IMG/VR virus record: IMGVR_UViG_3300032327_001082
Coordinates: 1-47,833 of that record
DNA length: 47,833 nt
Direction: 5' to 3' (one strand)
DNA from: a virus
Lineage: Duplodnaviria > Caudoviricetes
Part shown: positions 3,001 to 47,771 of the stretch, piece by piece
How the letters are laid out: every line of letters starts with the position of its first letter
Numbering within the stretch: the first letter of the stretch is position 1
Notes under the pieces: model-generated
Seen by the model: only the letters and a program-made list of their open reading frames with translations
Databases searched by the model: none
What the model was told of the DNA's origin: nothing
Position numbers and translations under genes: made by a program

Positions 3001-4156
3001 AACCGATCTAGGGTTAAATGCTGATATTAGCCGTGAAGAACTTAAAGGTTTAATTCAAAATTTTGATCTTTTAAATCCCGCTGCTGGACGTGCGGGTAAA
3101 AGTACTGCAGAAACTTATACTCTATTACTTGATATTGCGGGTGGATTTGACAAAGTAGCTGATGCTGCTGAATCTGCAGCTAAAAAGATCAGCGATGAAC
3201 GTGATGGTTTAAAACGCAAACTAGATGAATTAACACTAACCGCAGAACAACTACGAGATATAGATATAAGTAAACTAGACGCAAGCAATCAAGCACTACA
3301 ACGTCAGGTATTTGCAATGCAAGATATGCAAACAGCAGCTAAAACATTGCAAACTAGACTAAACGACGTTACTAAAACTATAAAATCACAAATTACTAGT
3401 TTAAGTGACTACAAGCAGTCATTGATAATGAGTGATAGATCCCCATTAAGTAAAGTAGATCAGCTACAGCTAGCTAAAGCACAACAAACAGAGTTATTTC
3501 AAATAGCCACTAGTACAACCGCAACTGAAGAAGAAAGAACTAAAGCATTAGATAAATTTAGAACTACTAGTGATCAAGTGCTTACACTAGGTCGTGAAGT
3601 ATTTGCTAGTGGTGCTGATTATCAAGTACTGTATACAGGAACTATGGGCATGATAGATGCTCTTGACGCAGATTTAAAAACTCGTAAAACTGCTGCCGAA
3701 ACGCAACTAGAAACATTACAGTCTAGTAATAGTTCCTTAAAAAGCATTGCAGAAACATCACTAAGTACATCACAGCTTATAGGTGCTTATTTAGATTCTA
3801 TTAAAACATATAATACTGCAGCAACTGCAGCTGGTGGTAATATTGTTGGTATACCTAAATTAGCTAGCGGAACTAACTATGTTCCTTATGACATGCTTGC
3901 ACAGATTCATCAAGGCGAACGTATTATACCTGCTGCAGACAATCAGCAGTTAATGAATAATAATATGGAAATGGTCCAGGAAATTAGATTGCTAAATCAA
4001 CGTATTGGTGACTTAGAACAAGCAATTATTGAGGGTGCTGTAATTAATGCACAAGCAACAGATCGCAACACAGAAACACTTAGCACAGCAATTGGCGCAA
4101 CCGCGGACAGAACGATTCAGTCAGCAAGAATTCAAACAAGGGCAGCTATTAAATGA
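2..4156 (+). CDS. Tail tape measure protein (5' end truncated by the window)
   Basis: The frame is open from position 2, so the TTG at 50 is probably not the real start. Long coiled-coil Q/E/K/L/A-rich protein with a hydrophobic segment (PPPFGAIVGAGLVALLLSSFGG) and the C-terminal siphophage TMP motif LASGTNYVPYDMLAQIHQGERIIPAADN; directly upstream of tail genes. Confidence 0.9.
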   Translation, partial: KETETQVRTRFNRVNRLVSEQLASRKDQQAKSAANTFTGAVNERKGELEDNQKLEALQSSITNAKLQQLQIVDSIVGYATKESIAAEAALENQNNQLKRKQEIDKIDEDILNVSKADVSEDRRSQLIKLAKLKTTTLTKQEIEAQVDSQKRLNQEIQAEIEVKNRVRELAKSSRDLANEEANARLEVTAAQVSSYATLFDNSKQYTNSLQNQNELQRIQQDYDSKVTEEFASINAKREDAQIKLNKLSATDVTQREEITKELKRQENLFKNNLGKLDAEKDKRQDILEITKQQQAVQVAIDKLNKQFELKKSNTQVQNAIANNALEAEQLKLDVQKTYAREFDTYIVKQQTALDLKKAEKATSQQILGLQDELNNKRNLSTTKVTALVQSGAAEQDVAKLQTDETEYLKQQSQLTDNEITKQNLALENTKAKLAVQQQLTLEQIKYNEMLSLSNELSTNLKDTFGLFGDKVKAVGEALGDTVTRLTESSIRQEKFSKTQIEDQKKLDQLKGNSGADEESIIDLQNKIADDKKKNNKEELKGDLAAISSTKKMFKEKTAAYKIFAAIEKALAIAQVASNAMVLASKLTTEAGSTAATTAGTTSRMPAYITDIWGQTLGKLPPPFGAIVGAGLVALLLSSFGGKGGSSKPPTVVTPEMRQETAGTAMGYNEAGQKVQVRSGVFGDENAKSNSIDNSLKIIADNSVDGLDYDNKMLNALRNLKSALENTAKALFGVGGLRSGTAFGTVEGIVNATSSFNSTMNSLTLGLWGGKKSVSTTIIDSGIKLQGTFLELVKAGGGLIQNYETISTTVSKGKTLGLFGGGSSTSVDTLYADLAKTNPKGEKALRESLQFLGDYITTVGEAAGKSSSDITSAMSQAKVDEIISLRGLSGEEFDRQLQTVFSALLDDASEVLFNDYKQFRKFGEGLAETVTRVIDDNLKVNQAVENIGGIDLKGNNTITEALIKAAGGLDKFLDKAENFRSNFLTEAEQLEPINKAYRKGLTDLGLNADISREELKGLIQNFDLLNPAAGRAGKSTAETYTLLLDIAGGFDKVADAAESAAKKISDERDGLKRKLDELTLTAEQLRDIDISKLDASNQALQRQVFAMQDMQTAAKTLQTRLNDVTKTIKSQITSLSDYKQSLIMSDRSPLSKVDQLQLAKAQQTELFQIATSTTATEEERTKALDKFRTTSDQVLTLGREVFASGADYQVLYTGTMGMIDALDADLKTRKTAAETQLETLQSSNSSLKSIAETSLSTSQLIGAYLDSIKTYNTAATAAGGNIVGIPKLASGTNYVPYDMLAQIHQGERIIPAADNQQLMNNNMEMVQEIRLLNQRIGDLEQAIIEGAVINAQATDRNTETLSTAIGATADRTIQSARIQTRAAIK

Positions 4157-16730: not shown

Positions 16731-19700
16731 ATGGCAGATAAAACTTGGAATGGTAGTACTGGAACTTGGGCTACTAGTGCTAGTTGGAGTCCTACTGGTG
16801 TTCCTCTTAGTACTGATAATGTATTTATTAATGCTGGCACAGTTACAGTAGCTGGTCAAACTTGTGCTGCTTTAACTATTGGTGGCACTGCTACTATTAC
16901 TGGAACTAGTTTAACTGTAACCACTAATATGAGTGTTAATGGTTCCGCACAATTTACCTATAGTGGCAGCAGCACACTAGCTGTAGGTGGTACACTTAAT
17001 ATAGCTTCAGCTAGTGGTAGGTTTACACACAGCGGTGCCGGTGGATTAACAGTAGGTGCTAGTTTTACTAATAGCGGCACTTATAATCAAACTAATACTG
17101 CTGCAGTACTTACTTTTACTGGCGGCACTTTTAGTGGCACTGTTAATTGGGGTACTAATAGTTGCTATAAAGTTACCGTAGCAAAAACTAGTACAACTAT
17201 ATTAACTTTTAATAATAGTGGGGCACTAAATTGTACAGCATCAAATTCTACTGTTTCAGCATTTACATTTACTACTTGCAGTAATTTTACCAATAATTGC
17301 GTTATTAATACAAATACACTAATTAATAATGGTGCTACTACTAGAACTTGGAATTTAAATGCTGATGTAAATCTTACAGGCAGTTTTAGTGGTGCAATAG
17401 TTAGTGCTAGTCAAACTACTTGTACTTATGCTAGTAAAACTGGTACGATTAGATTTCAAAATAGTGGTTCTACTAGTGTTGATTCAACGCTAGCTTTTGG
17501 TGGTGGTATTTTAGCTACTTGCCCAAATGTAAGCATTGAAACTGGAAATACTACTACAAGAGTACTAGTAACTGGTAGTGTAGAGAATTTATGGACAAGT
17601 GGTAATTATTTTAATACAGGTAGTTTAACTGTATTCGGCAACTTACAAGACAGTACTGCAAATTGTACTTGGACTGGTGCAACTATAACTAAACCAGCTA
17701 CTGCTAGTGGTGCTACTAGCACTACTAATTGTACTGCACGTTTTGGAACTATAACTTTTGCAGGCGGTGCTACTGCTGCTACTACTTTTAATAGTGCTTG
17801 TACACATACCGTAACTTTTTGTAGAGCAAGTACAATTGCTGTTAGTACTACAGCTTTAGGTGTTACTTATAATTTTAATAATATTGAGGTAGCTACCGCA
17901 CTAAACTTAAGTTTGCCTACTAGTCCTAGTACACCTTGTACAGTTACAGTATCTAAAGCAAGACCTTTTAGTGGTGCTGCTGCAGTTACTACTACTATAG
18001 GTCAAGCAATTAGTAGTAGTACAAGCTATAGTACCGTATATCTTGAAGATTATGATATACCTAGTACTATTACTCATAATACGCAATATTTAATAATTGG
18101 CGGACTTAATAGCAATAGTGTTCGTTGCACTACTTTTACTACTGGTGCTTTGACTAGGTACTTTGATATAGGTGCTGCAGGTAGAACTAGCTATTTAGTT
18201 ACTAGAAGTAATCAAACTGGAGAGCCTGGCACAGGCAGTTGCAGTATTAGTGGTACTGGTTTTAATAATAATGTGTGTAATGGAGGTTTTGTAGTTGCTG
18301 GTAGTGGATCACATGCTTTTGGTACACCAACTTATATTAACGCTCTTATTGTTATACTAAGAAGCGGTAGCGCCACTCTAAGCGGTACTATAGCCAGATT
18401 AGAAGTAGAAGCCAGTGGCGGAGCCACTGGTACAATAACTATTAATGGACCCTATGCTGGTGACAGTATTAAGCAAGTAAGCGGCAATCCTGGACCCATT
18501 AGCGGCTTAAATTTAACTTATGCTTTATCAAATGCTGCAGATACACCGCAATATTCACATAATTTTGCTGGACTACTAGGCACTGTAACTGTAAATAGTA
18601 GCTATTATGCAATTAATTTTGATAATGTTAATTGTAGTACGCTTACTATTGCTGGCAGCGGCACTACACTTAGTTCAGATGTAAGTATTACTAATGGTAC
18701 TGTTGGTACTGTTAATTTTCAACCAACACAAACTGGTTCAACAGCTACTAGTAACTGTTATATTTATGGCGGAACATTTACTAATTTTAATGTTAACTAT
18801 ACTACAAATCCTAATATTAGAACACTTAATATTCAAGTATCAAAAACAGATAATTTAGTTACAGGTACGCTTACACATACCGCAGGAACTATATATATAT
18901 CTTATACTGTTGCAGTGCAAAACTACACTGCAGCTGCTACTGGTACAAAACAAATAGATTGGAGTAGTAATAGTGATAGTATTTTAAAAATTAATGGTAG
19001 TTGTACTATACCTAGTATTTTAACTTATGCAGCAGCAGGAGATACTAATAGTGTTACTGGCAGCGCGTACGCAGGTTCTTTTTGGTTAGCTGGTAGTGAT
19101 ACTTGTACAGGATATGTTTGGACATCAACCACACCTAGTGTAAGATATAATACTATAATTAGTGCTCGAAATAGTACTTTAACTAATTGGTACACTCAAA
19201 ACTGCACATTTATAGAAGACGCTAACTCTGTTTATCCAACAGCATATCAAATAAATTACACAGATGGTATTTTAGGTAGTAATACTCTTAGTACTAATTT
19301 AAGTGGTTTAACCCTTCAATCAGTATTAACTCCAAGAGATCCTGCTTATGTTAAAACTGATTGTAAAACTACAGTACCTTTTGCAGCTTTTAATCATAAT
19401 ACTGTTAATTCTTATGGTTACACAATTGATAACATATATGCTGCTAATATAACACTTGGTGTTGTTGGCACAGTTTATACTATGGGAGCTACTGTTACTG
19501 ATGTTGTAAAATCAAATAACACAATTACGCTTAGTGCTGCTACTACTTATAATATGTACTATGTAGAATGTGTTAATTTAATACTTAATGGTGCTGGTGC
19601 TACCTATATTGTTGATGGAGTTCGATACTTAGATAATAATCTTAATCCTACTACTGGTACTGTTACACATACTGCAGGAACACTTGCGCTTTCAGTAACA

Positions 19701-22700
19701 GGTAATGGCTATGATCCAGTATTAAGTGCTTGTAACTTTACTAGTAATACTGGTACTAGAACTATTGATTTTAAAGATAATTCTTATGCTCTTATTCAAA
19801 CACTTGGTACTGGTGCTTTAAATATAAGTTATTCTGGCCTTACAACAATTTTTCAAGCTGGATTTACGCCTTTTGCCGGTTTTTTGCATAATAGTACAGG
19901 CAGTATCAATACTGGAGCTGTTGCTCCTACTACTGCTAGTGCGGCAAGCATTTATATACTTAAAGGCTGTACGTTGCCGTCTACGCTTTATGCCAAAAAT
20001 TTTTCTAACTATAATTATCCAAAAATTGCAAATAATTATCCTATAGATGGGTATAATAGTGGTAAATTTAATGGCAGTACAGATTATTTGTCTACTACCA
20101 CAACATTTTCATTAGCAACTGCAACTACTCCATTTACAATGGAAGCCTGGGTTTATTTTAATTCTTTTTCAGGAGCTGCAATTGCCTCAACTGCTTATGC
20201 AGGTAGTGGACCACTTCCGTTTGTTATGGGAATGGGCAGCGGAGTTACTACCGCTGCAGGCGCTACGCCATGGTTTGGGTATTATACTGGTTCAACATGG
20301 GTATCTGTTGTACAGTCAAGCACAAGTTTATCTGTTAATACTTGGTATCATTTGGCTTATGTGTATACTGGATCTTCAGCAACAATATATGCAAATGGTA
20401 CTTCAATTGGCACAGCAACAGTATCTACATGGCAAACCACTAGTCAAGCAGGATTTTATATAGGCAGAAGGTGGGATACAGCAGTAAGTCCATATTTTAA
20501 TGGGTATATTAGCAATTTTAGATTTGTTATAGGAACAGCAGTCTACACAGGCACATTTACTCCGCCAAAATCACCACTTTTTGCAACACAAGGTTCTCAA
20601 ACTAATATTGCTGCAATTACTGATAAATCAACAGTATTGCTTACTTGTCAATCCAGTAGTTTTAGAGACAACAGCTATAACAGCGTAACAATCACTACAA
20701 ATGGAACACCACTTGTTAGTGACTTTTCTTTTATTAGTCCATATGGTAGCGGGTACCCTATTAATACAAGTAATTTTAGCGTAGAACTTTACGGTGATTT
20801 TAGTATTGGTGGAGAACTTTTAGCTAGTCAAACAGGAACAGATACTGTTGTTAATCGCGCTGGTTGGCAATATTTAGCTGTTAATTTAGCTACTACAACA
20901 GTTTCAGATCAGCATACTTTAACTACTCAACCTCGTGTAACGCCAAGTCCATATACTTATAGTTATCCAATGTATAACATAAGTACAGTTCGTCAAATTA
21001 CATTACCAAGTACTTTTTTAGGCACGGCAAATATAATTGGCAGATTGCAGTCTAGTTTATTTTATCACAATCGCGGAAGCTTAAGTTTTACTAAATATTA
21101 TAATTATGATACTTCGGGAACGTACTCATCACAACTATATGTAAATACTACAATTGGTAGTAGTGATACTACTAATACTAAAACTCATGTATATAACAAT
21201 CTTACTACTTCCGGAGCTGATACAAGTATATTTTTATTAGCTACAACTGGTACTGTATGGGATTTTCCATACACTAATTTGCTTAGTAGTAATTGGCAAA
21301 TTATAGTTAATGTTTTAGGTGGTATAATTAATCATGGAACTAATAATAGAAAAACTACTACTCAACCTAGTTTTGATTTTACTAATTTTACGAGCAGTTT
21401 TACTTTAAATCCTAATACTAGTTTTAATGTAGGTAGTTTGCTATTAAAAAATTATAATATACCTAGCAGTAGTGTATTTAACGTAGGCGGACCTGTATTT
21501 ACTTATGACAGTCCTAGTAATACTATAGGTGCTAATGCGTCTATAAATTTAATAGACGGTGGAAATAGAAAATCTAGCGGTAGTATTATTGCAACTAGTT
21601 TTACTAACACTACAGGTCAACTTAGTTATAGTAGTATAACCAATGGCATAGTAGCACAAATAGGTCAAGTAGTACAAATTACAGGAAGTTTTTACAATAC
21701 AGCTTTTAAGTATATAAGTAATACTATAACTGCTCAAAGTGTAAGCAATGCCTCTATTACTGTTTATGGAACTACTTCAGGTCAAACTAGCGGCGGTACT
21801 GTTGCTAGCGGGCTACTTCAAATAAGTGGTGGCAGTCTTCAAAGACAGTATGCTAGCGGTAGTGTAACCATTCAGTATACGGTTTCTAATCCTTGTAGAA
21901 TTACATATTATTTAGGTAATAACGGTAGTGCTAGTGTTACTGCATATTCAAATATAACCATAAGTAGTTCGTTAGGTTTTTATGTAGCTGATAGTACTAA
22001 TCATATAGGTAAAAATAGTACGGTAGACGTTCCAGGAAACAGCAGTAATTATACTATAACTATAACTGCAAATACCGGTGTTAGTGGACAAGAAGCAATT
22101 AGTGGTTATGTATCATGGGTTATTACAAGCTCATCTAGTGCTGTTACAGGAAATATTCCTGCATATAATGGCACAAATGGTCTTTATGCTATTACAGCAA
22201 TTGGCAGCGGCGTGCTTACTTTAGGCGATATATACAGTAATCCTATAACTACTGTTACAGGCACAATACAAGGTCCTACATTTATAACAACAGCAATAAG
22301 TAGTGCTCCAGCAGGCAGTGATGTTACTTTATTTACAAGCAATACTACTGCTATTTATCCCGCAATTACTTGTGAAGTAAGTACCAATCTTAAATTATCA
22401 AGTAATAGTTTTAAGTTTAATACACTTAGTCTTAGCAAAGGCATTGTTTTTGACGCATACACTAATACTAGTACTTATGGTTTAATTTGTTACCAAGTAA
22501 TTCGTGCAACGGAAAATTCTACATTAAATATTACTGGCAAAACACTAGAAATTCAAGGTTCTGGTAGCGGTACTGACACCGGTATTCAATTTGGTAATAA
22601 TGGTGATACTAATACAAATGCTAGTGGTAATCTTATTGGCAGTACTAGCAGTAATTTAGTTTTTTCAGGAATAGGTGGCACTGGAGGCTTTGGCAGCAAT

Positions 22701-24473
22701 CAATATATTAAGTTTAGTAAGTACAGCAGTAGTTACGGAGGCAAATTAACTAATAATCTTCAGTATATTGCTGGAAACAACACTGGTTTTGTACAAATTG
22801 AACTAGAAGGGATAACAGGACTTACACCAAACGTTTATCCTGTTCACTTTTTTGATATAAGTTTTGGCTTTAGTACTGGTGCACTATTTATAAATAGTTA
22901 TTATGGCGTAGGTGTAAAAACTTTTAATTTAATAAATGGTGTTAGATTACAAGGTGTAAACGGTACTTACAGTGCTAGTAATACCAGCATGATTCTAGCA
23001 AATAATTCAACATATAGGGTAAGTGCGGATCAACTTATAATAAATAATTTTAATGTAGCTGGCGGAAATGGTTGGTATTATGGTAATAATAGTAATGTTA
23101 GTGGCAGCTATACAGGTTGGCAAAATGGACTGCCTCCTACCTTTAGTTTAAGTAGAACACCTACTGGAAATATTAATGAAGGCTCAACTATAACTATTAC
23201 ACTAAGTACTACTAATTTAAATAATGGTACTCTAGTGCCTTTTACAATATCTGGTGTAGATAATACAGATATACGTATTGATGGAGTTAGTACACTTAGT
23301 GGTAATTTTACAATGAGTGGTAGTACTGCTTCAGCCACTGCTAGCATAACAATTACTGCTGTTGCTGATTTTACAGATGAAAGTTCTGTTCTTCAATATG
23401 AAACTATTACATTAACTCTAAGTAACGGAACAACCTCTATTAGTTTTGCAATTTATGATACTAGTAAAGTTCCTACATACAGTTTATCACGAAGTCCTGC
23501 TGGTGATATAACTGAAGGAAATTCTGTTACTATTACGTTAACTGCTACTAGTATTCCTGCTGGAACCGCAATACCTTATACTCTTAGTGGTACAGCAACT
23601 AATAATACTGATTATACAGTATCTAGCGGTCAATTTACTTTAGGAACAACAACTGTAGTAAATGATGTATTAAGTGCAACTAGTGCATTAACTTTTAATA
23701 CTATTTGGGATTATGTTAGCGAAAGCACAGAAACTGTAACATTAATAACAGCTTCTACTCTTGGCGGCACTAATGCTAGTATTACTTTTAATATTTTAAA
23801 CTTATTGCACCCTACCTATTCTTTGACTGCAAATCCTACTAGTGTAACTGAAGGCGGTAGTTTTACCATTACATTAACTACTACAGATGTAGCAAATGGA
23901 ACTAATGTACCTTATACTATTAGTGGCACAGGTATAACTGCTAGTGATTTTAGTATTGGCGGTAGTAGTAGTTTTACTGGTAATTTTAACATACAAAATA
24001 ATACTAGTACAATAACTGTTACCACACTTGCTGATTATTTTAGTGAAAGTAGTGAAAATCTTAGGCTTACACTAGATACAATAGGTACATTTATAGATGT
24101 ACCTATTGCAGATTATTACAAAACTCGTACATGGAGTTTAGCAACTGATAAAACTACTGTTTCAGAAGGTGAAAGTTTTACTATTACACTAACAACTACT
24201 AATGTATTTGATAATACCTTAGTACCTTATACTATTAGTAGTGGCACCAGTGGTACAATAACTACTGGAGATTTTACACCTGCTAGTTTAACTGGTAATT
24301 TTACTGTTGTTGGTGGTACTGCACAGCAAACTTTTAACATTGTTGTAGATGCTGCTATAGAAGGCGTTGAAATATTTGTTTTAACTTTAAACAGTCCTGC
24401 AAATAGTTCAATTAGTGTAAGTATAAGAGATGCTGTAGCTTCTGCTGGTAATTTTTTAATTTTATTTGAATAG
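16731..24473 (+). CDS. Giant adhesin-like virion protein (2580 aa): beta-solenoid region, LamG/ConA-like lectin domain and four Calx-beta/Ig-like repeats
   Basis: N-terminal WNGSTGTWATSASWSPTGVP..DNVFI motif. LamG signature FTMEAWVY...NTWYHLAYVY...IYANG...FNGYISNFRF (~20040-20740). Four C-terminal repeats PT(F/Y)SL...EG.S.TITL.TT....GT.VPYTISG (~23136, 23472, 23811, 24126). Confidence 0.8.
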   Translation: MADKTWNGSTGTWATSASWSPTGVPLSTDNVFINAGTVTVAGQTCAALTIGGTATITGTSLTVTTNMSVNGSAQFTYSGSSTLAVGGTLNIASASGRFTHSGAGGLTVGASFTNSGTYNQTNTAAVLTFTGGTFSGTVNWGTNSCYKVTVAKTSTTILTFNNSGALNCTASNSTVSAFTFTTCSNFTNNCVINTNTLINNGATTRTWNLNADVNLTGSFSGAIVSASQTTCTYASKTGTIRFQNSGSTSVDSTLAFGGGILATCPNVSIETGNTTTRVLVTGSVENLWTSGNYFNTGSLTVFGNLQDSTANCTWTGATITKPATASGATSTTNCTARFGTITFAGGATAATTFNSACTHTVTFCRASTIAVSTTALGVTYNFNNIEVATALNLSLPTSPSTPCTVTVSKARPFSGAAAVTTTIGQAISSSTSYSTVYLEDYDIPSTITHNTQYLIIGGLNSNSVRCTTFTTGALTRYFDIGAAGRTSYLVTRSNQTGEPGTGSCSISGTGFNNNVCNGGFVVAGSGSHAFGTPTYINALIVILRSGSATLSGTIARLEVEASGGATGTITINGPYAGDSIKQVSGNPGPISGLNLTYALSNAADTPQYSHNFAGLLGTVTVNSSYYAINFDNVNCSTLTIAGSGTTLSSDVSITNGTVGTVNFQPTQTGSTATSNCYIYGGTFTNFNVNYTTNPNIRTLNIQVSKTDNLVTGTLTHTAGTIYISYTVAVQNYTAAATGTKQIDWSSNSDSILKINGSCTIPSILTYAAAGDTNSVTGSAYAGSFWLAGSDTCTGYVWTSTTPSVRYNTIISARNSTLTNWYTQNCTFIEDANSVYPTAYQINYTDGILGSNTLSTNLSGLTLQSVLTPRDPAYVKTDCKTTVPFAAFNHNTVNSYGYTIDNIYAANITLGVVGTVYTMGATVTDVVKSNNTITLSAATTYNMYYVECVNLILNGAGATYIVDGVRYLDNNLNPTTGTVTHTAGTLALSVTGNGYDPVLSACNFTSNTGTRTIDFKDNSYALIQTLGTGALNISYSGLTTIFQAGFTPFAGFLHNSTGSINTGAVAPTTASAASIYILKGCTLPSTLYAKNFSNYNYPKIANNYPIDGYNSGKFNGSTDYLSTTTTFSLATATTPFTMEAWVYFNSFSGAAIASTAYAGSGPLPFVMGMGSGVTTAAGATPWFGYYTGSTWVSVVQSSTSLSVNTWYHLAYVYTGSSATIYANGTSIGTATVSTWQTTSQAGFYIGRRWDTAVSPYFNGYISNFRFVIGTAVYTGTFTPPKSPLFATQGSQTNIAAITDKSTVLLTCQSSSFRDNSYNSVTITTNGTPLVSDFSFISPYGSGYPINTSNFSVELYGDFSIGGELLASQTGTDTVVNRAGWQYLAVNLATTTVSDQHTLTTQPRVTPSPYTYSYPMYNISTVRQITLPSTFLGTANIIGRLQSSLFYHNRGSLSFTKYYNYDTSGTYSSQLYVNTTIGSSDTTNTKTHVYNNLTTSGADTSIFLLATTGTVWDFPYTNLLSSNWQIIVNVLGGIINHGTNNRKTTTQPSFDFTNFTSSFTLNPNTSFNVGSLLLKNYNIPSSSVFNVGGPVFTYDSPSNTIGANASINLIDGGNRKSSGSIIATSFTNTTGQLSYSSITNGIVAQIGQVVQITGSFYNTAFKYISNTITAQSVSNASITVYGTTSGQTSGGTVASGLLQISGGSLQRQYASGSVTIQYTVSNPCRITYYLGNNGSASVTAYSNITISSSLGFYVADSTNHIGKNSTVDVPGNSSNYTITITANTGVSGQEAISGYVSWVITSSSSAVTGNIPAYNGTNGLYAITAIGSGVLTLGDIYSNPITTVTGTIQGPTFITTAISSAPAGSDVTLFTSNTTAIYPAITCEVSTNLKLSSNSFKFNTLSLSKGIVFDAYTNTSTYGLICYQVIRATENSTLNITGKTLEIQGSGSGTDTGIQFGNNGDTNTNASGNLIGSTSSNLVFSGIGGTGGFGSNQYIKFSKYSSSYGGKLTNNLQYIAGNNTGFVQIELEGITGLTPNVYPVHFFDISFGFSTGALFINSYYGVGVKTFNLINGVRLQGVNGTYSASNTSMILANNSTYRVSADQLIINNFNVAGGNGWYYGNNSNVSGSYTGWQNGLPPTFSLSRTPTGNINEGSTITITLSTTNLNNGTLVPFTISGVDNTDIRIDGVSTLSGNFTMSGSTASATASITITAVADFTDESSVLQYETITLTLSNGTTSISFAIYDTSKVPTYSLSRSPAGDITEGNSVTITLTATSIPAGTAIPYTLSGTATNNTDYTVSSGQFTLGTTTVVNDVLSATSALTFNTIWDYVSESTETVTLITASTLGGTNASITFNILNLLHPTYSLTANPTSVTEGGSFTITLTTTDVANGTNVPYTISGTGITASDFSIGGSSSFTGNFNIQNNTSTITVTTLADYFSESSENLRLTLDTIGTFIDVPIADYYKTRTWSLATDKTTVSEGESFTITLTTTNVFDNTLVPYTISSGTSGTITTGDFTPASLTGNFTVVGGTAQQTFNIVVDAAIEGVEIFVLTLNSPANSSISVSIRDAVASAGNFLILFE

Positions 24474-24484
24474 GATATACTAAT

Positions 24485-24847
24485 ATGATTAATGACGTAA
24501 AAGTAATTATATCTGCTTTAATTTTAGCCATAGTTTTAATTTTAGGTTATTTTGGCTATAAAACTGTATACAATCGTGGTGTTGAACAAGCTAAACTAGA
24601 GTGCGAACAACAACGACAAAAATACGAACAACAAGTAGCAGAAAAAATTCAAACACTAGAAAATGCACTAGAACAAACCGCCAAACAAAGTGAAGCTAAA
24701 AAACAACAACTAAATAAAACTATTCGTGAAATTAAGTCTAAGCTTAACACACAGCCTATTACTATAATTGAAAATGGCAAGTGTATACCAGCAGTAATTT
24801 TTTTAGATAGTATTAACGAAGCAATTTCTAGAGCCAATCAAAAATGA
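24485..24847 (+). CDS. Inner-membrane spanin (Rz-like)
   Basis: N-terminal TM helix, coiled coil and C-terminal Cys; ATGA overlap with the downstream lipoprotein gene. Confidence 0.8.
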   Translation: MINDVKVIISALILAIVLILGYFGYKTVYNRGVEQAKLECEQQRQKYEQQVAEKIQTLENALEQTAKQSEAKKQQLNKTIREIKSKLNTQPITIIENGKCIPAVIFLDSINEAISRANQK

Positions 24848-25134
24848 AAAAACTAGTAATAACCTTTGGTTTATTACTTATACTGTTAAACGGCTGTGGA
24901 ATTTTTAATAAAAAAATTCAAGAAATTCCACCGCCTATAGTCACTAACAACAGAGTAGTAGTAGACCCTAAACTGCTGCAAGCTTGCGAACCATTACCAG
25001 CACTAGTTGGCAATACTTATGAACAAGTTGCAGATCACTATTTAACCGTCATTAACCTCTACGGTCAATGCGCCCTAAAACAACTAGACAGTATTGATGT
25101 TATCAGAAAACTGTCTAACCTGGATAAACCATGA
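24844..25134 (+). CDS. Outer-membrane spanin lipoprotein (Rz1-like)
   Basis: Signal peptide with lipobox LLNG|C, Pro-rich segment, and LLQACEPLP...YGQC cysteine pattern. Confidence 0.85.
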   Translation: MKKLVITFGLLLILLNGCGIFNKKIQEIPPPIVTNNRVVVDPKLLQACEPLPALVGNTYEQVADHYLTVINLYGQCALKQLDSIDVIRKLSNLDKP

Positions 25135-25550
25135 AAGAACATTTACGTTTTCGCAATATTTTTATGATTGGTGGTACACTTATTGTAATGATTTACTTGT
25201 ACCTTAGTGACCCTAACGGCGGTAACTTAACCGTTCCATTTTTAGCTAAACTAGCCACTCCTATTGTAGCTGTGTGGTTTGCACATCTTGCACGTCGCGC
25301 ACTATTTGACTATGCAGATATGGAAGCTTTAATGAAAAAAGCACGTGAAACTGCCACTGGCGCAGGCTTAGCGTTTTTAGGTCTTTGTTTAATTATTTAT
25401 GGCTTACTTGGACTATTTGGCTCGCAAGTATATGCGCAACCAGTAGCCACCTATATTCCTGAACAAGCGCATCAGCATTTACCTACACTGCAACAGGAAA
25501 AAGATAAGGTTTGGGCTCAACACCCAAAGCCAGCTACCTTGCTAGTTTAA
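25131..25550 (+). CDS. Three-TM holin-like membrane protein whose tail resembles the N-terminus of the endolysin
   Basis: Three hydrophobic segments; lies between the spanins and the endolysin; hydrophilic tail QPVATYIPEQAHQHLPTLQQEKDKVWAQHPK. Confidence 0.7.
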   Translation: MKEHLRFRNIFMIGGTLIVMIYLYLSDPNGGNLTVPFLAKLATPIVAVWFAHLARRALFDYADMEALMKKARETATGAGLAFLGLCLIIYGLLGLFGSQVYAQPVATYIPEQAHQHLPTLQQEKDKVWAQHPKPATLLV

Positions 25551-26086
25551 TAGAGCACGAATCCTGCATAAGTTTAAAACATTCACGATGTTGGAATCCT
25601 AAGTCTAGGCTTAAAAGTGCTAGAGAAGAGGGTGCAGGACTTGGACAAATTACCAGGGCTTTTAAACCAGATGGTACTATTAGATTTGATGCTCTATCAG
25701 AACTAAAATACAAGTATCCTAAGGAATTATCGGAATTAAATTGGCAAGTAGTCTACGACAGACCAGATTTACAAATTCGTGCACTTACACTAATGATGCG
25801 TGATAATTATCAACAATTTGATAAATATGCTGCAGACAAGCGTGAAGCTTATGCATTTGCTGATGCTGCTTATAATGGCGGCGTAGGTGGTGTAAATCAT
25901 GAAAGACGTGCTTGTAAATTAACTAGCTGGTGTGATCCTAATCGTTGGTTTGATAATGTAGAAAAACTTTGTTTAAAATCTAAAGTAGCACTTTATGGTA
26001 ATCGTAGTGCTTGTGATATTAATCGTCATCATGTGGAGGATGTAATCATTACTAGAAATCTAAAGTATAGTCAGTTAGTTAAATAA
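25511..26086 (+). CDS. Endolysin, lytic transglycosylase (SLT / lysozyme-like fold); probably reached by a -1 frameshift from the upstream ORF
   Basis: SLT motifs LIEHES (catalytic Glu), GAGLGQIT and AAYNGG; only a weak TTG start is available. Confidence 0.85.
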   Translation: MGSTPKASYLASLIEHESCISLKHSRCWNPKSRLKSAREEGAGLGQITRAFKPDGTIRFDALSELKYKYPKELSELNWQVVYDRPDLQIRALTLMMRDNYQQFDKYAADKREAYAFADAAYNGGVGGVNHERRACKLTSWCDPNRWFDNVEKLCLKSKVALYGNRSACDINRHHVEDVIITRNLKYSQLVK

Positions 26087-26105
26087 TTACGTTAGAAAGG
26101 TCTAT

Positions 26106-26813
26106 ATGGCTAATCAATCCGGTAAACAAGCTCGCAAAGTAGCACTGCTAGAAACAAAAGCTTCAGAACCAGTGCACGAGAGCAAAAAATATGTCTTTAA
26201 AGAAGTAAAACCACTAAATGAAATTCAAAGTGTATATTTAAATGCTATTAAACGTAATGATATTATTTTTGGTATTGGCAGTGCTGGCACAGGTAAAACC
26301 TATGTAGCTGCCAGCTATGCAGCAGCACAGCTATTTTACAAAAAAATCACAAAAATTATACTTACTAGACCAAATGTAGAAACTGGTCGTGGAATGGGAT
26401 TTTTACCAGGCAAACTAGAAGACAAATATGCTCCTTACTTACAGCCTTTTGATTCAGTATTTACTAAAACACTAGGTATTGGATTTTATCAATATGCATT
26501 AAAAAACAAAGATATAGACCCTAAACCTATTGGATTTATGCGCGGCATGAGTTTTGACGACGCAGTAATTTTAGTAGACGAAGCACAAAATTTAACTAAA
26601 ACTGAACTAAAAATGTTGCTAAGCCGTATAGGAAAAAATTGCAAAGTTATCTTAAGTGGTGATCCTAAGCAGTGTGATATTATAGACAGCGGCCTAGAAG
26701 ATGCAGTTAGTAGACTAAGCAGACTACCTGGCGTTGAATTAGTTAGATTTGAAGATGATGATATTGTTCGTAGTCCAATGTGTAAACAAGTTATTTTAGC
26801 CTACAACAATTAA
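26106..26813 (+). CDS. phoH: PhoH-family ATPase
   Basis: GSAGTGKT, LTRP, GFLPG, FMRG, DEAQN, RIG and GDPKQCD motifs; C-terminal DIVRS. Confidence 0.97.
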   Translation: MANQSGKQARKVALLETKASEPVHESKKYVFKEVKPLNEIQSVYLNAIKRNDIIFGIGSAGTGKTYVAASYAAAQLFYKKITKIILTRPNVETGRGMGFLPGKLEDKYAPYLQPFDSVFTKTLGIGFYQYALKNKDIDPKPIGFMRGMSFDDAVILVDEAQNLTKTELKMLLSRIGKNCKVILSGDPKQCDIIDSGLEDAVSRLSRLPGVELVRFEDDDIVRSPMCKQVILAYNN

Positions 26814-26850
26814 AAAAAGCCTCTAAGCTGTTAAGCTTAGAGGCTTTTTT
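26812..26850. terminator. Bidirectional intrinsic terminator at the convergence of the two arms
   Basis: Perfect 17-bp inverted repeat AAAAAAGCCTCTAAGCT-gtta-AGCTTAGAGGCTTTTTT between the facing stop codons. Confidence 0.95.
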
Positions 26851-27109: not shown

Positions 27110-29071
27110 TCACCTTATTGGACAAGCACCAGTACTGCAGTCTTGATCTGTAATTTCATCAAAACTATTTGCAGTGTTTAAATCAATTGTACCTAAAATT
27201 TGTACATAGTTTTTATAAGTTTGTTCATCTACTACTTCTTGCGGAAGGTATAAGTAACCTAAATCTTTAGCAGTTTTACTAGGATCAGTTCTGTAAATAA
27301 AACTTACGCCTACATAGCAATCCCAGTTGTCTAACAGCCAGTTAATAATTGCTGGAATTTCTGTTGGATCATAACTAATAGTTACCGACGTATTTTGTTG
27401 ATTCCAACTAGTTTGCAATAATTTATAGCGTTCTAGTTGTGTAACAGCACTTTCCAAGTTAACTTCTTTTCCATCAACTTTATCAAACACTACGCCATCC
27501 CAACAAACTGGAAAAGTTACTAATACTCCGCTATCGTCAACTGGATGATTAATTACTGTATAATTAGCTTCGCGTAGTTTTTCTACAACCGGATCGTGTT
27601 TTGAAAATTGCACATTGTTGAAAATGTACTTGCCTAGTGGTTTGTGTACACCTTCAGTAGTATCCATAATCTTGCTTAGTGTACCCGACGGTTTTACGCA
27701 AGTTACATTTTTAGGAACTGGCAATCCTAGTTCTTGAGCCATGCCTACTGCAGCACTAGTTGCTGTGCGTTTTAGGTATTCATAGTCATAACTGCCCATA
27801 TCTGGGCGCATTGCAATGCCTGTTAAACCTACTCCACAAAGACGTAAAAAGTAGTTGTTTAAATGCCAACTTTCTTGTAAAATTCCGTCTTGTAAGTCAA
27901 CACAAGTTTGACGATAATTAGCTCTAGCAGCTAGTCTAATAGCTGCGTGTAGTCCGGCATTGTCGCCACGAAACTTAGCAATATCAGTTTCTGTTAAGTT
28001 ACAAAAGCTCTTGTTGCCCAACAAAATTTCTACACAAGGATTAGCGCCTTTAAACCAAGGTGCACGACGTAGTGCTTCTACTTCATTAATAAATCCTGGC
28101 TCGCTACCGCCTGCTTCTTGCATTAGGTGAAAAATCTTTTCTAAGTCTTCGCGCAGTGGTTTTTCTTTAAACACTAGGCTATTATTACTTTGAGTACGAT
28201 GTTCATTGTTATGTAGCCACCAGTCTTTTTTAGCTACCGCAAACTCTTCCCACTCAGGCTGACCATAGTCGAAAAGAGCGATTTCAGCACTTCGGCGGCT
28301 GCTAAGAATAGTACCCAGATGATTAACGATGTCCAGAATATCCATCCTAGTAAGTAGACTATCAGCCCTACCATTAAGAATATTGGCAATGCTAGTATAT
28401 GCAGCACTAATTGCAGTATCGCCTGAAGAAATCCAACCATAACCTTTTAACCTCTCTCCTGCTGGACGCAACTGCGAAAAATCTAAAACTAGTGTTTCTG
28501 CTGGATATTTACCTGCTAATAGTTTGCCAATACTTTTAGCCCAAGCTTCCGCACTGTCACCAATTTGCAATGTCCAAGTTTTAGTTGTTACATCCCAAGT
28601 TTCTGTGTTATACTCATTGCCGCCTTTTTCAGTGCGCTGACTACGAATTGTTTTGATATTTTTAATTGGATTTGAAAATCCATTAAGAGTACCTACAATA
28701 GGTTTAAATCCTACACCGCAACCTTGTAGCAATAACCATAGCACATCAACCACATCATATACAGTTTCTACATGAGTAAAGCTACAATTAAACTGACTTG
28801 CTTCCCGTGTTTTAGCTACTTTAGTTCCACCAAGCCAAAGTGTGCGACCGCTCATTAATACTTTGCGATCTAGCATTAGCTGTTCTAAGTCATAAAGTTC
28901 TGCATACTCTTGATCATTTAATTCACGACTAACTGCACGTTCCCATAGCCATGCTTGATGATCAATTACACGAGCAACTGTTTCTTCCCATGTTTCAAAC
29001 TGTTTTCCATCGTCACTAGTAGGTCTATTATAAGTGCGACGGGTAATTACTTGTGCTCTTGTGCTAACCAT
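27110..29071 (-). CDS. nrdJ: Class II (adenosylcobalamin-dependent) ribonucleotide reductase, RTPR-like
   Basis: RRTYNRP, GRTLWLGG, FNCSF, GCGVGF, RRSAEI, active-site NPCVEI, FCNL, TCVKPSGT and C-terminal redox pair CSTGACPIR; no beta-subunit gene nearby. Confidence 0.92.
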   Translation of the reverse strand: MVSTRAQVITRRTYNRPTSDDGKQFETWEETVARVIDHQAWLWERAVSRELNDQEYAELYDLEQLMLDRKVLMSGRTLWLGGTKVAKTREASQFNCSFTHVETVYDVVDVLWLLLQGCGVGFKPIVGTLNGFSNPIKNIKTIRSQRTEKGGNEYNTETWDVTTKTWTLQIGDSAEAWAKSIGKLLAGKYPAETLVLDFSQLRPAGERLKGYGWISSGDTAISAAYTSIANILNGRADSLLTRMDILDIVNHLGTILSSRRSAEIALFDYGQPEWEEFAVAKKDWWLHNNEHRTQSNNSLVFKEKPLREDLEKIFHLMQEAGGSEPGFINEVEALRRAPWFKGANPCVEILLGNKSFCNLTETDIAKFRGDNAGLHAAIRLAARANYRQTCVDLQDGILQESWHLNNYFLRLCGVGLTGIAMRPDMGSYDYEYLKRTATSAAVGMAQELGLPVPKNVTCVKPSGTLSKIMDTTEGVHKPLGKYIFNNVQFSKHDPVVEKLREANYTVINHPVDDSGVLVTFPVCWDGVVFDKVDGKEVNLESAVTQLERYKLLQTSWNQQNTSVTISYDPTEIPAIINWLLDNWDCYVGVSFIYRTDPSKTAKDLGYLYLPQEVVDEQTYKNYVQILGTIDLNTANSFDEITDQDCSTGACPIR

Positions 29072-47697: not shown

Positions 47698-47771
47698 TGG
47701 CAGGGATACTAGGATTTGAACCTAGAATAACGGAATCAAAATCCGTGGTGTTGCCATTACACTATATCCCA
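47698..47771 (-). tRNA. tRNA-Gln (TTG anticodon) with encoded CCA
   Basis: Cloverleaf: acceptor TGGGATA/TATCCCT, anticodon arm ACGGA-TTTTGAT-TCCGT, T arm CTAGG-TTCAAAT-CCTAG, then G-CCA. Confidence 0.93.

Follow-up and report, generated by a model that had tools for sequence, protein, structure and literature searches.

The locus considered here raises the question of how a phage makes its endolysin when the coding frame of the enzyme overlaps, and is offset by one base from, that of a holin-like membrane protein. The DNA analysed, hereafter called the window, is a virus record of 47.8 kb (47,833 nucleotides) with 34% GC that is about 45% complete. An initial annotation of this DNA had proposed that a programmed -1 frameshift at the heptamer C CCA AAG joins the two frames into a holin-endolysin fusion.

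The lysis locus

The nearest matches of the DNA polymerase (48-49%) are Vibrio phages such as Thalassa, whose genus belongs to the Demerecviridae, and because this one gene is closest to Demerecviridae-type Vibrio phages the virus is regarded as T5-like. Terminal repeats were seen in two related records of 99 and 106 kb. The best labelled sequencing runs with window sequence are freshwater metagenomes; in RNA runs it is matched by contigs of related strains in small shares, which indicate neither expression level nor habitat. The lysis genes follow the tail genes in the order i-spanin, o-spanin, a 139-aa ORF with transmembrane (TM) segments and the transglycosylase frame, and phoH comes next (Table 1).

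Directly before the spanins, positions 16731-24473 encode a Thr/Ser/Gly-rich protein of 2580 aa that is likely a tail fibre or adhesin. One contig from sequencing run X1 carries an inserted T at 24792, in the i-spanin gene. Downstream, a long hairpin (26813-26850), flanked on either side by runs of A and T, lies between phoH and nucleotide-metabolism genes, which are convergent, and looks like a bidirectional terminator. The minus strand encodes a B12-dependent-type ribonucleotide reductase (27110-29071) and a tRNA-Gln gene (47698-47771). In a related locus, L225, the lysis gene is separated from phoH by an extra 170-aa ORF (3218-3730) that, on inspection by eye, resembles an HNH-type endonuclease.

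Table 1 Features of the lysis locus in the window.
Feature	Coordinates	Strand	Basis or remark
Rz-like i-spanin, 120 aa	24485..24847	+	PHROG Rz-like spanin families, best E 5.7e-6
Rz1-like lipoprotein o-spanin, 96 aa	24844..25134	+	Pfam LysC E 8.8e-7; PHROG 456 E 9.9e-7
0-frame ORF, 139 aa	25131..25550	+	ORF; three hydrophobic peaks; profile homology to YuA gp61-type holins
Parts of the 139-aa ORF			Holin-like 3-TM domain ~1-102; first transglycosylase helix ~103-133; 6-residue tail
TM3, V-Y-A then Gln103	25365..25436	+	Predicted internal signal peptide, signal peptidase I-like site
Transglycosylase N-terminal segment and first helix, in 0 frame	25437..25529	+	L025 model; structural match
SD-like AAGGT (Lys-Val codons)	25506..25510	+	Present in window, not conserved
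TTG 'start' of called endolysin ORF	25511..25513	+	By-product of Trp codon TGG
-1 slippery heptamer C CCA AAG	25523..25529	+	Conserved among broken homologues
-1 frame, transglycosylase catalytic core, 185 codons	25529..26086	+	PHROG 669 endolysin E 1.3e-14
0-frame stop TAA	25548..25550	+	Six codons past slip site

The architecture that had been proposed for the locus held on recomputation. The heptamer lies in phase at 25523-25529, the 0 frame ends six codons past its Lys, and joining 133 codons of the 0 frame (up to that Lys) to 185 codons of the -1 frame (up to its stop) gives a fusion of 318 aa, which agrees in length with natural in-frame fusions of about 310-320 aa. Among the 14 plus-strand ORFs of the window that were tested, this was the only in-phase heptamer that opened a -1 frame of more than 22 codons.

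A frame break shared by homologous loci

Homologous loci were compared after removal of duplicates. The 112 distinct loci comprised 48 with the frame break (the window included), 30 in-frame fusions of the TM part and the enzyme, 28 two-gene arrangements and six without a TM match, the broken share being inflated by targeted scans so that these counts give no frequency. One locus, L156, was placed in the broken class by hand, and four loci from which the anchor motif is absent (L095, L182, L183 and L205) were left out of the count. L095, read by eye, and L225, both outside the 112, also have the break together with C CCA AAG. Among 80 viral loci fetched with the enzyme part, the 24 top-ranked (64-89% identity) are all broken at the same place, with the enzyme shifted by -1 relative to the TM ORF. 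A DNA pattern blind to the heptamer, consisting of the Trp codon and the catalytic motif at a spacing one base short of in-frame, recovered the identical 24 viral contigs; its 44 matches in metagenomes were 32 broken homologues, one in-frame homologue (L163) and 11 unrelated sequences.

The two frames fit each other across the break. After a -1 join the spacing from the Trp to the catalytic Glu is 14 residues in all eight loci inspected, for every heptamer spelling, and equals the in-frame spacing. All of the best 120 homologues of the 0-frame product close with P-K or P-N and a short tail, which has six residues in 106 of them; among 120 natural fusions, by contrast, 15 have an xP[K/N/F/L] pair. 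Of the 36 loci that lack an earlier stop in the 0 frame, 35 have one formed by the Leu-Ile codons, compared with 76% of Leu codons expected to do so from usage, which hints at selection for a short 0-frame tail.

In-frame fusions of a holin-like part and a transglycosylase, of ~315 aa, are widespread (L025, L175-L186, P0006-P0125), and the best 120 matches span 282-326 aa. Genomes that bear them include Parazoarcus, Caenimonas, Leptothrix and Ideonella, and one fusion is named just 'lytic murein transglycosylase'; the named genomes with the fused form are mostly betaproteobacteria. Neither a fused nor a shifted form was seen in cultured phages, where the TM protein matched one record, and the four cultured enzyme matches examined, among 40 of 76 listed, are all two-gene. 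The enzyme (57%) and the TM part (43%) have their best cultured matches in one record, labelled as a Bacillus phage, AgentSmith (MW749006.1), at 127456-127989 and 155340-155594, 28 kb apart.

A tree of the concatenated parts was built from 86 sequences, with 29 near-duplicate identifiers on a drop list and short-enzyme loci excluded. It places 29 of 30 broken loci together (support 0.95); the relation of this clade to the fused and split forms has a support of 0.12, and the enzyme-only tree is likewise weak at depth. Two loci, L136 and L159, carry A AAA AAG, and L136 is placed, at weak support, apart from the main frameshift clade; the frameshift may therefore have arisen twice.

Conservation of the slippery heptamer

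An in-phase heptamer of the form X XXY YYZ is present inside the overlap in all 48 broken loci, in six spellings and at three positions. The heptamers at the usual position are C CCA AAG (26 loci), C CCA AAA (14), C CCA AAC (1), C CCT TTT (2) and C CCT TTC (1); those that have moved are A AAA AAG one codon later and C CCT TTT two codons later, in two loci each. Elsewhere in the same genes 71 of 13,880 codons carry an in-phase heptamer, corresponding to ~5% per ten-codon overlap. None of the 64 unbroken loci has one, although these loci are richer in GC (0.46-0.69 versus 0.42 for the broken loci) and a heptamer is therefore less likely in them by chance.

Because the loci are kin, forming 18 clusters at 70% nucleotide identity, the 48 of 48 are not 48 independent tests, and a fair count is roughly three changes of spelling or place with the form kept each time. 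The chance of this is about 1 in 10,000 as a rough estimate from the sequences. The tree unites the CCT-TTY loci in a single group (0.99) and places the loci with a relocated site next to a C CCA AAG locus (0.96). Wherever the preceding His codon contributes the first C of the heptamer (42 loci) it is CAC, and it is CAT in the two loci from which the site has moved away, against a background in which 88 of 229 His codons are CAC. Across 18 close loci, wobble variation passes from the TM frame to the enzyme frame at the heptamer. Judged from these patterns, the heptamer is selected beyond what the protein needs, and both the proposed programmed shift at C CCA AAG and the prediction that close homologues would keep the break and the heptamer were supported.

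An enzyme fold encoded in two frames

Homologues of the enzyme include the endolysins of YuA (gp62) and Sonora, at 44-50% identity. In family-1 (SLT-type) lytic transglycosylases the catalytic Glu lies in an ES motif and a further motif is AYNxG; the sequence contains ES and AYNGG together with six conserved Cys. The Pfam SLT family did not match the window enzyme, a PDB sequence search returned nothing, and Foldseek by itself was likewise without a match at E 0.001. A natural fusion, L025, was modelled unaltered (pLDDT 91). The model has N-terminal helices at residues 4-23, 29-57 and 74-99, followed by a helix at 110-126 with pLDDT 91-98 and then the enzyme core. Residues 100-316 superimposed on MltF with a Z score of 18.6 (rmsd 2.8, 173 residues aligned), with Slt, MltC and MltE as the next matches.

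Because the match spans residues 100-316 of the L025 model, the helix encoded before the slip site lies inside the transglycosylase domain. The suggestion that this domain takes its missing first helix from the tail of the TM ORF is thus in agreement with the model and its match to MltF, Slt and MltE. According to the model, the complete enzyme fold draws on sequence from both frames and the -1 frame is a family-1-type lytic transglycosylase core with a goose-lysozyme-like fold. Four Pfam families with working controls detected no other lysin in four genomes, three of which are at least 90% complete; searches for GH108 and GH19 lysins gave no match even in control genomes and are uninformative.

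Alternative routes to the enzyme frame

An error in sequencing or assembly, or decay of the gene, might leave a broken version of the in-frame fusions of equal length that more distant relatives possess. The site was examined for a one-nucleotide deletion using contigs rather than raw reads, and contigs from three DNA runs cross it without a gap. That from X1, a run that is possibly the source sample, covers 25151-25613 with zero differences; that from X3, another study, extends over 24423-26813 and differs by 81 substitutions but by no gap; and that from X6, also another study, covers 25413-25602. Moreover, 47 other distinct loci as well as L095 and L225 share the break, no full-length fusion of 315 aa was found among the best 120 enzyme homologues, and the -1 frame is open over its full length with variation of the wobble type. 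Error or decay is extremely improbable, and the split is a genuine genomic feature. Two ordinary overlapping genes are also highly improbable. In this case the enzyme would be translated from TTG 25511 or by re-initiation, either without the upstream helix or in trans with it. The TTG ORF (25511-26086, 191 aa) is open in the window and has the ES-motif Glu as its residue 17, as had been noted, and gene callers predict such products for most relatives. The position of the TTG reads TTG in 18 of the broken loci, CTG in 14, GTG in 14 and ATG in 2, and because it consists of a base N followed by the TG of a fixed Trp codon TGG, the apparent start is a by-product. A stop codon separates it from the heptamer in 8/48 loci, and in 5/48 there is no ATG, GTG, TTG or CTG at all ahead of the catalytic Glu, some NTG being present there in the other 43; the shortest overlap is 16 nt (L022, L023). 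By this comparison the TTG of the window is not a conserved start. Its product would have neither an export signal nor the first helix of the fold, and its use would leave the conservation of the heptamer without explanation.

A third possibility is that RNA polymerase slippage adds a base during transcription and that ribosomes then read the message normally. Short homopolymer runs are present at the site (CCC, then AAA or TTT), and DNA alone cannot separate a transcriptional from a ribosomal mechanism. Runs of 3+3 bases, which are all that C CCA AAG and C CCA AAC contain, are short for transcript realignment, however, and what has been kept among the homologues is the codon phase and the X XXY YYZ form. 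A contig from an RNA library (X16, 25496-25747) is also gap-free, a weak point since contigs drop rare forms and this one may derive from DNA. Polymerase slippage is accordingly considered very unlikely, and ribosomal -1 frameshifting at the heptamer would very likely be the means by which the enzyme frame is reached.

The Trp codon region can pair with the heptamer in a hairpin (25509-25530, -8.8 kcal/mol) that buries the TTG, and upstream pairing of at least four heptamer bases occurs in 34 of the 48 broken loci. As TGG and CCA are complementary this hairpin may itself be a by-product; it could suppress internal initiation.

Stimulators of slippage

The SD-like AAGGT that had been put forward as a stimulator is present in the window at 25506-25510, but an SD-like 4-mer occurs in just 16 of the 48 broken loci, which argues against a general role. 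Pairing with the anti-SD averages -3.6 versus -2.1 kcal/mol for background, a mild excess to which the fixed Trp codon may add, and is -4 or better in 6 of 26 loci versus 16% of background windows. The observation that there is no convincing 3' hairpin was corroborated, none being conserved. In pseudoknot-free folding, the 3' region compared with synonymous shuffles gave mean z values of +0.07 to -0.55 (control windows, -0.67 to +0.28), and the consensus 3' fold was empty across 28 representatives. With no conserved stimulator, the slip rate may be low.

The spacing between TM3 and the slip site was considered as a selected trait and rejected, since it is 36 codons in 117/119 0-frame proteins but also in 81/102 parsed fusions. 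Nascent-chain stimulation of -1 frameshifting is described for alphavirus and in TMD-slip, in eukaryotic lysate, in the available text of PMC12776465: a distance of 45 codons was effective and 35 or 55 were not. As in TMD-slip, the heptamer of the window lies some tens of codons behind a TM segment and no RNA structure is needed; unlike TMD-slip, the site is ~36 codons past the end of TM3, a spacing equal to that of unshifted fusions. By analogy, insertion of TM3 into the Sec translocon might pull on the ribosome when it reaches the heptamer ~36 codons later, and a bacterial frameshift without an RNA stimulator could in this way couple endolysin output to membrane insertion of the holin. A slip driven by the nascent chain, with a released 37-aa stub that may damp the enzyme until lysis, is a speculative and improbable addition. 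Insofar as a conserved RNA stimulator is absent, the gene would lend itself to testing whether the nascent chain can control frameshifting in bacteria.

The TM domain and the fate of the enzyme

The window TM protein gave no direct holin match in Pfam, NCBIfam or PHROG, and the Atlas lead for the TM domain was PF13272 at 0.89. A profile of 71 TM domains scored phiT5282EW_08 at 30.6 bits and YuA gp61 at 18.3 bits, in each case above all 250 block shuffles, and Sonora at 5.6 bits and Mecenats66 at 9.8 bits, values that 7/250 and 5/250 shuffles attained, respectively. Comparison with YuA-type holins by hhalign gave a weak match (probability 25%). As with YuA gp61-type holins, the TM part is a small 3-helix membrane protein that is encoded within a spanin cassette, immediately upstream of the endolysin. 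The designation 'holin' is therefore retained in part, on weak homology, topology and gene position but without a direct family match, and the TM part quite probably functions as a holin.

The most hydrophobic segment is TM3, and the charge distribution agrees modestly with an N-in, C-out topology. All 119 parsed homologues of the 0-frame product, and 61 of 63 parsed fusions, have a small-x-small motif, mostly followed by Gln, whose place after TM3 is fixed. Five stand-alone enzymes of ~70% identity (P0311, P0317, P0319, P0328 and P0335) have a classic signal peptide with the same Ala-Gln boundary. They nest among the broken loci in the tree, suggesting a secondary return to a separate gene. 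The six conserved Cys would suit folding in the periplasm. Based upon the motif, the stand-alone signal peptides and the six Cys, TM3 is predicted to be an internal signal peptide and the enzyme is likely released; cleavage of the fusion by signal peptidase appears fairly likely. By motif count, a hydrophobic segment ending in small-x-small stands directly before the predicted mature enzyme, which corresponds to the A-x-A signal end of Lys44-type endolysins. The single uncleaved N-terminal anchor of SAR endolysins, which has no signal peptidase site, was not found: the enzyme has three helices ahead of it, and the last of these, TM3, ends in small-x-small.

These features make it doubtful that the endolysin is membrane-tethered, as the initial annotation had suggested. 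Under that arrangement the same -1 frameshift would yield a fusion that stays uncleaved, with the enzyme held by the 3-helix domain on the periplasmic side under SAR-like control with the holin. Natural in-frame fusions are common (30/112 loci), the hydrophobicity of TM3 would suit an anchor and the Sonora homologue is annotated as SAR; the near-invariant small-x-small motif and the five relatives within the frameshift clade whose signal peptides end at the same boundary as TM3 speak against it. Tethering is therefore held to be rather unlikely.

Proposed mechanism

The explanation put forward, in which frameshifting, release of the enzyme and control of the ratio are combined, is likely as a whole. 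One lysis gene of a T5-like phage would consist of two overlapping frames that meet at C CCA AAG, where ribosomes would slip back one base at Pro-Lys by tandem tRNA slippage. Most ribosomes would stop at 25548, so that the 139-aa holin-like membrane protein would be the majority product, and a minority would slip and make the 318-aa form with a complete lytic transglycosylase. In both products TM3 would direct the C-terminus to the periplasm and serve as the internal signal peptide. Signal peptidase I would cut after Ala102, giving the same 102-aa membrane protein from either product and releasing outside a 37-aa peptide (0 frame) or a 216-aa enzyme (-1 frame). The slip rate would set the holin-to-endolysin ratio above 1:1. 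As judged from the sequences, in this group of uncultured freshwater phages the enzyme is likely made solely when ribosomes on the holin-like gene slip back one base.

Relation to known systems

The closest parallel in mechanism is the lambda G/GT tail assembly chaperone, which has counterparts in other tailed phages and whose -1 shift is conserved across diverged phages according to the available text of a review (PMC5009743). In both cases one phage gene with a slippery heptamer gives a short 0-frame and a longer -1 product in a set ratio. Unlike lambda G/GT, which lies upstream of the tape measure gene, the gene described here follows the spanins and encodes a transglycosylase; it is a lysis gene that begins with a membrane protein, an enzyme domain divided over the two frames is completed by the shift, and relatives exist both as in-frame fusions and as two genes.

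In gene content the locus resembles the cassettes of YuA (gp61/gp62), Sonora and Mecenats66 (PHROG 8226, 669), which have a homologous enzyme and, directly upstream, a weakly homologous 3-helix protein; Sonora also shares the order i-spanin, o-spanin, holin, endolysin. Unlike the locus described here, these cassettes consist of two genes with no frame break, and their enzymes carry an N-terminal export signal of their own. For Sonora, the available text of PMC9022593 has the upstream protein annotated as a class I holin and the enzyme as a SAR endolysin that is not cleaved. Oenococcus phage fOg44 has a signal-peptide endolysin, Lys44, and P1, 21 and phiKMV have SAR endolysins (PMC7143992, available portion). 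As in these, the wall is predicted to be reached here by an export signal and not through a holin hole; unlike these, the predicted signal is the third helix of a holin-like protein and the enzyme frame needs a frameshift.

Lysins appear among the genes listed as frameshifting in the available portion of PMC10885494, with Shearman 1994 cited in that reference group. Frameshifting in a lysin gene is therefore not without precedent. The title of Shearman 1994 names no holin. The lysis case of MS2 involves a single-gene lysis protein of an RNA phage, unlike the two-part gene of the window, and a later title in the references of the review ascribes it to termination coupling (PMC5009743, portion available). 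The phage frameshifts treated in the available text of that review concern tail chaperones, capsid and tail proteins, and the words 'holin' and 'endolysin' are absent from that text (PMC5009743). No description of a frameshift joining a holin and an endolysin was found in a literature search that covered listings and the openings of abstracts, and published catalogues of frameshifts may already list this gene.

The -1 frame break in this phage lysis gene is real and conserved, and it is very probably a programmed frameshift. Automated gene prediction consequently records these endolysins wrongly, as ORFs truncated at the N-terminus, which is seen in most of the best 120 matches. If the explanation is true, programmed frameshifting is used to dose a lysis enzyme and would offer one more means of setting the ratio of holin to endolysin, next to in-frame fusion relatives with a 1:1 ratio and other relatives with two separate genes. 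Since two-gene, in-frame and frameshifted forms stand side by side in one family, the value of that ratio would be testable by swapping them.
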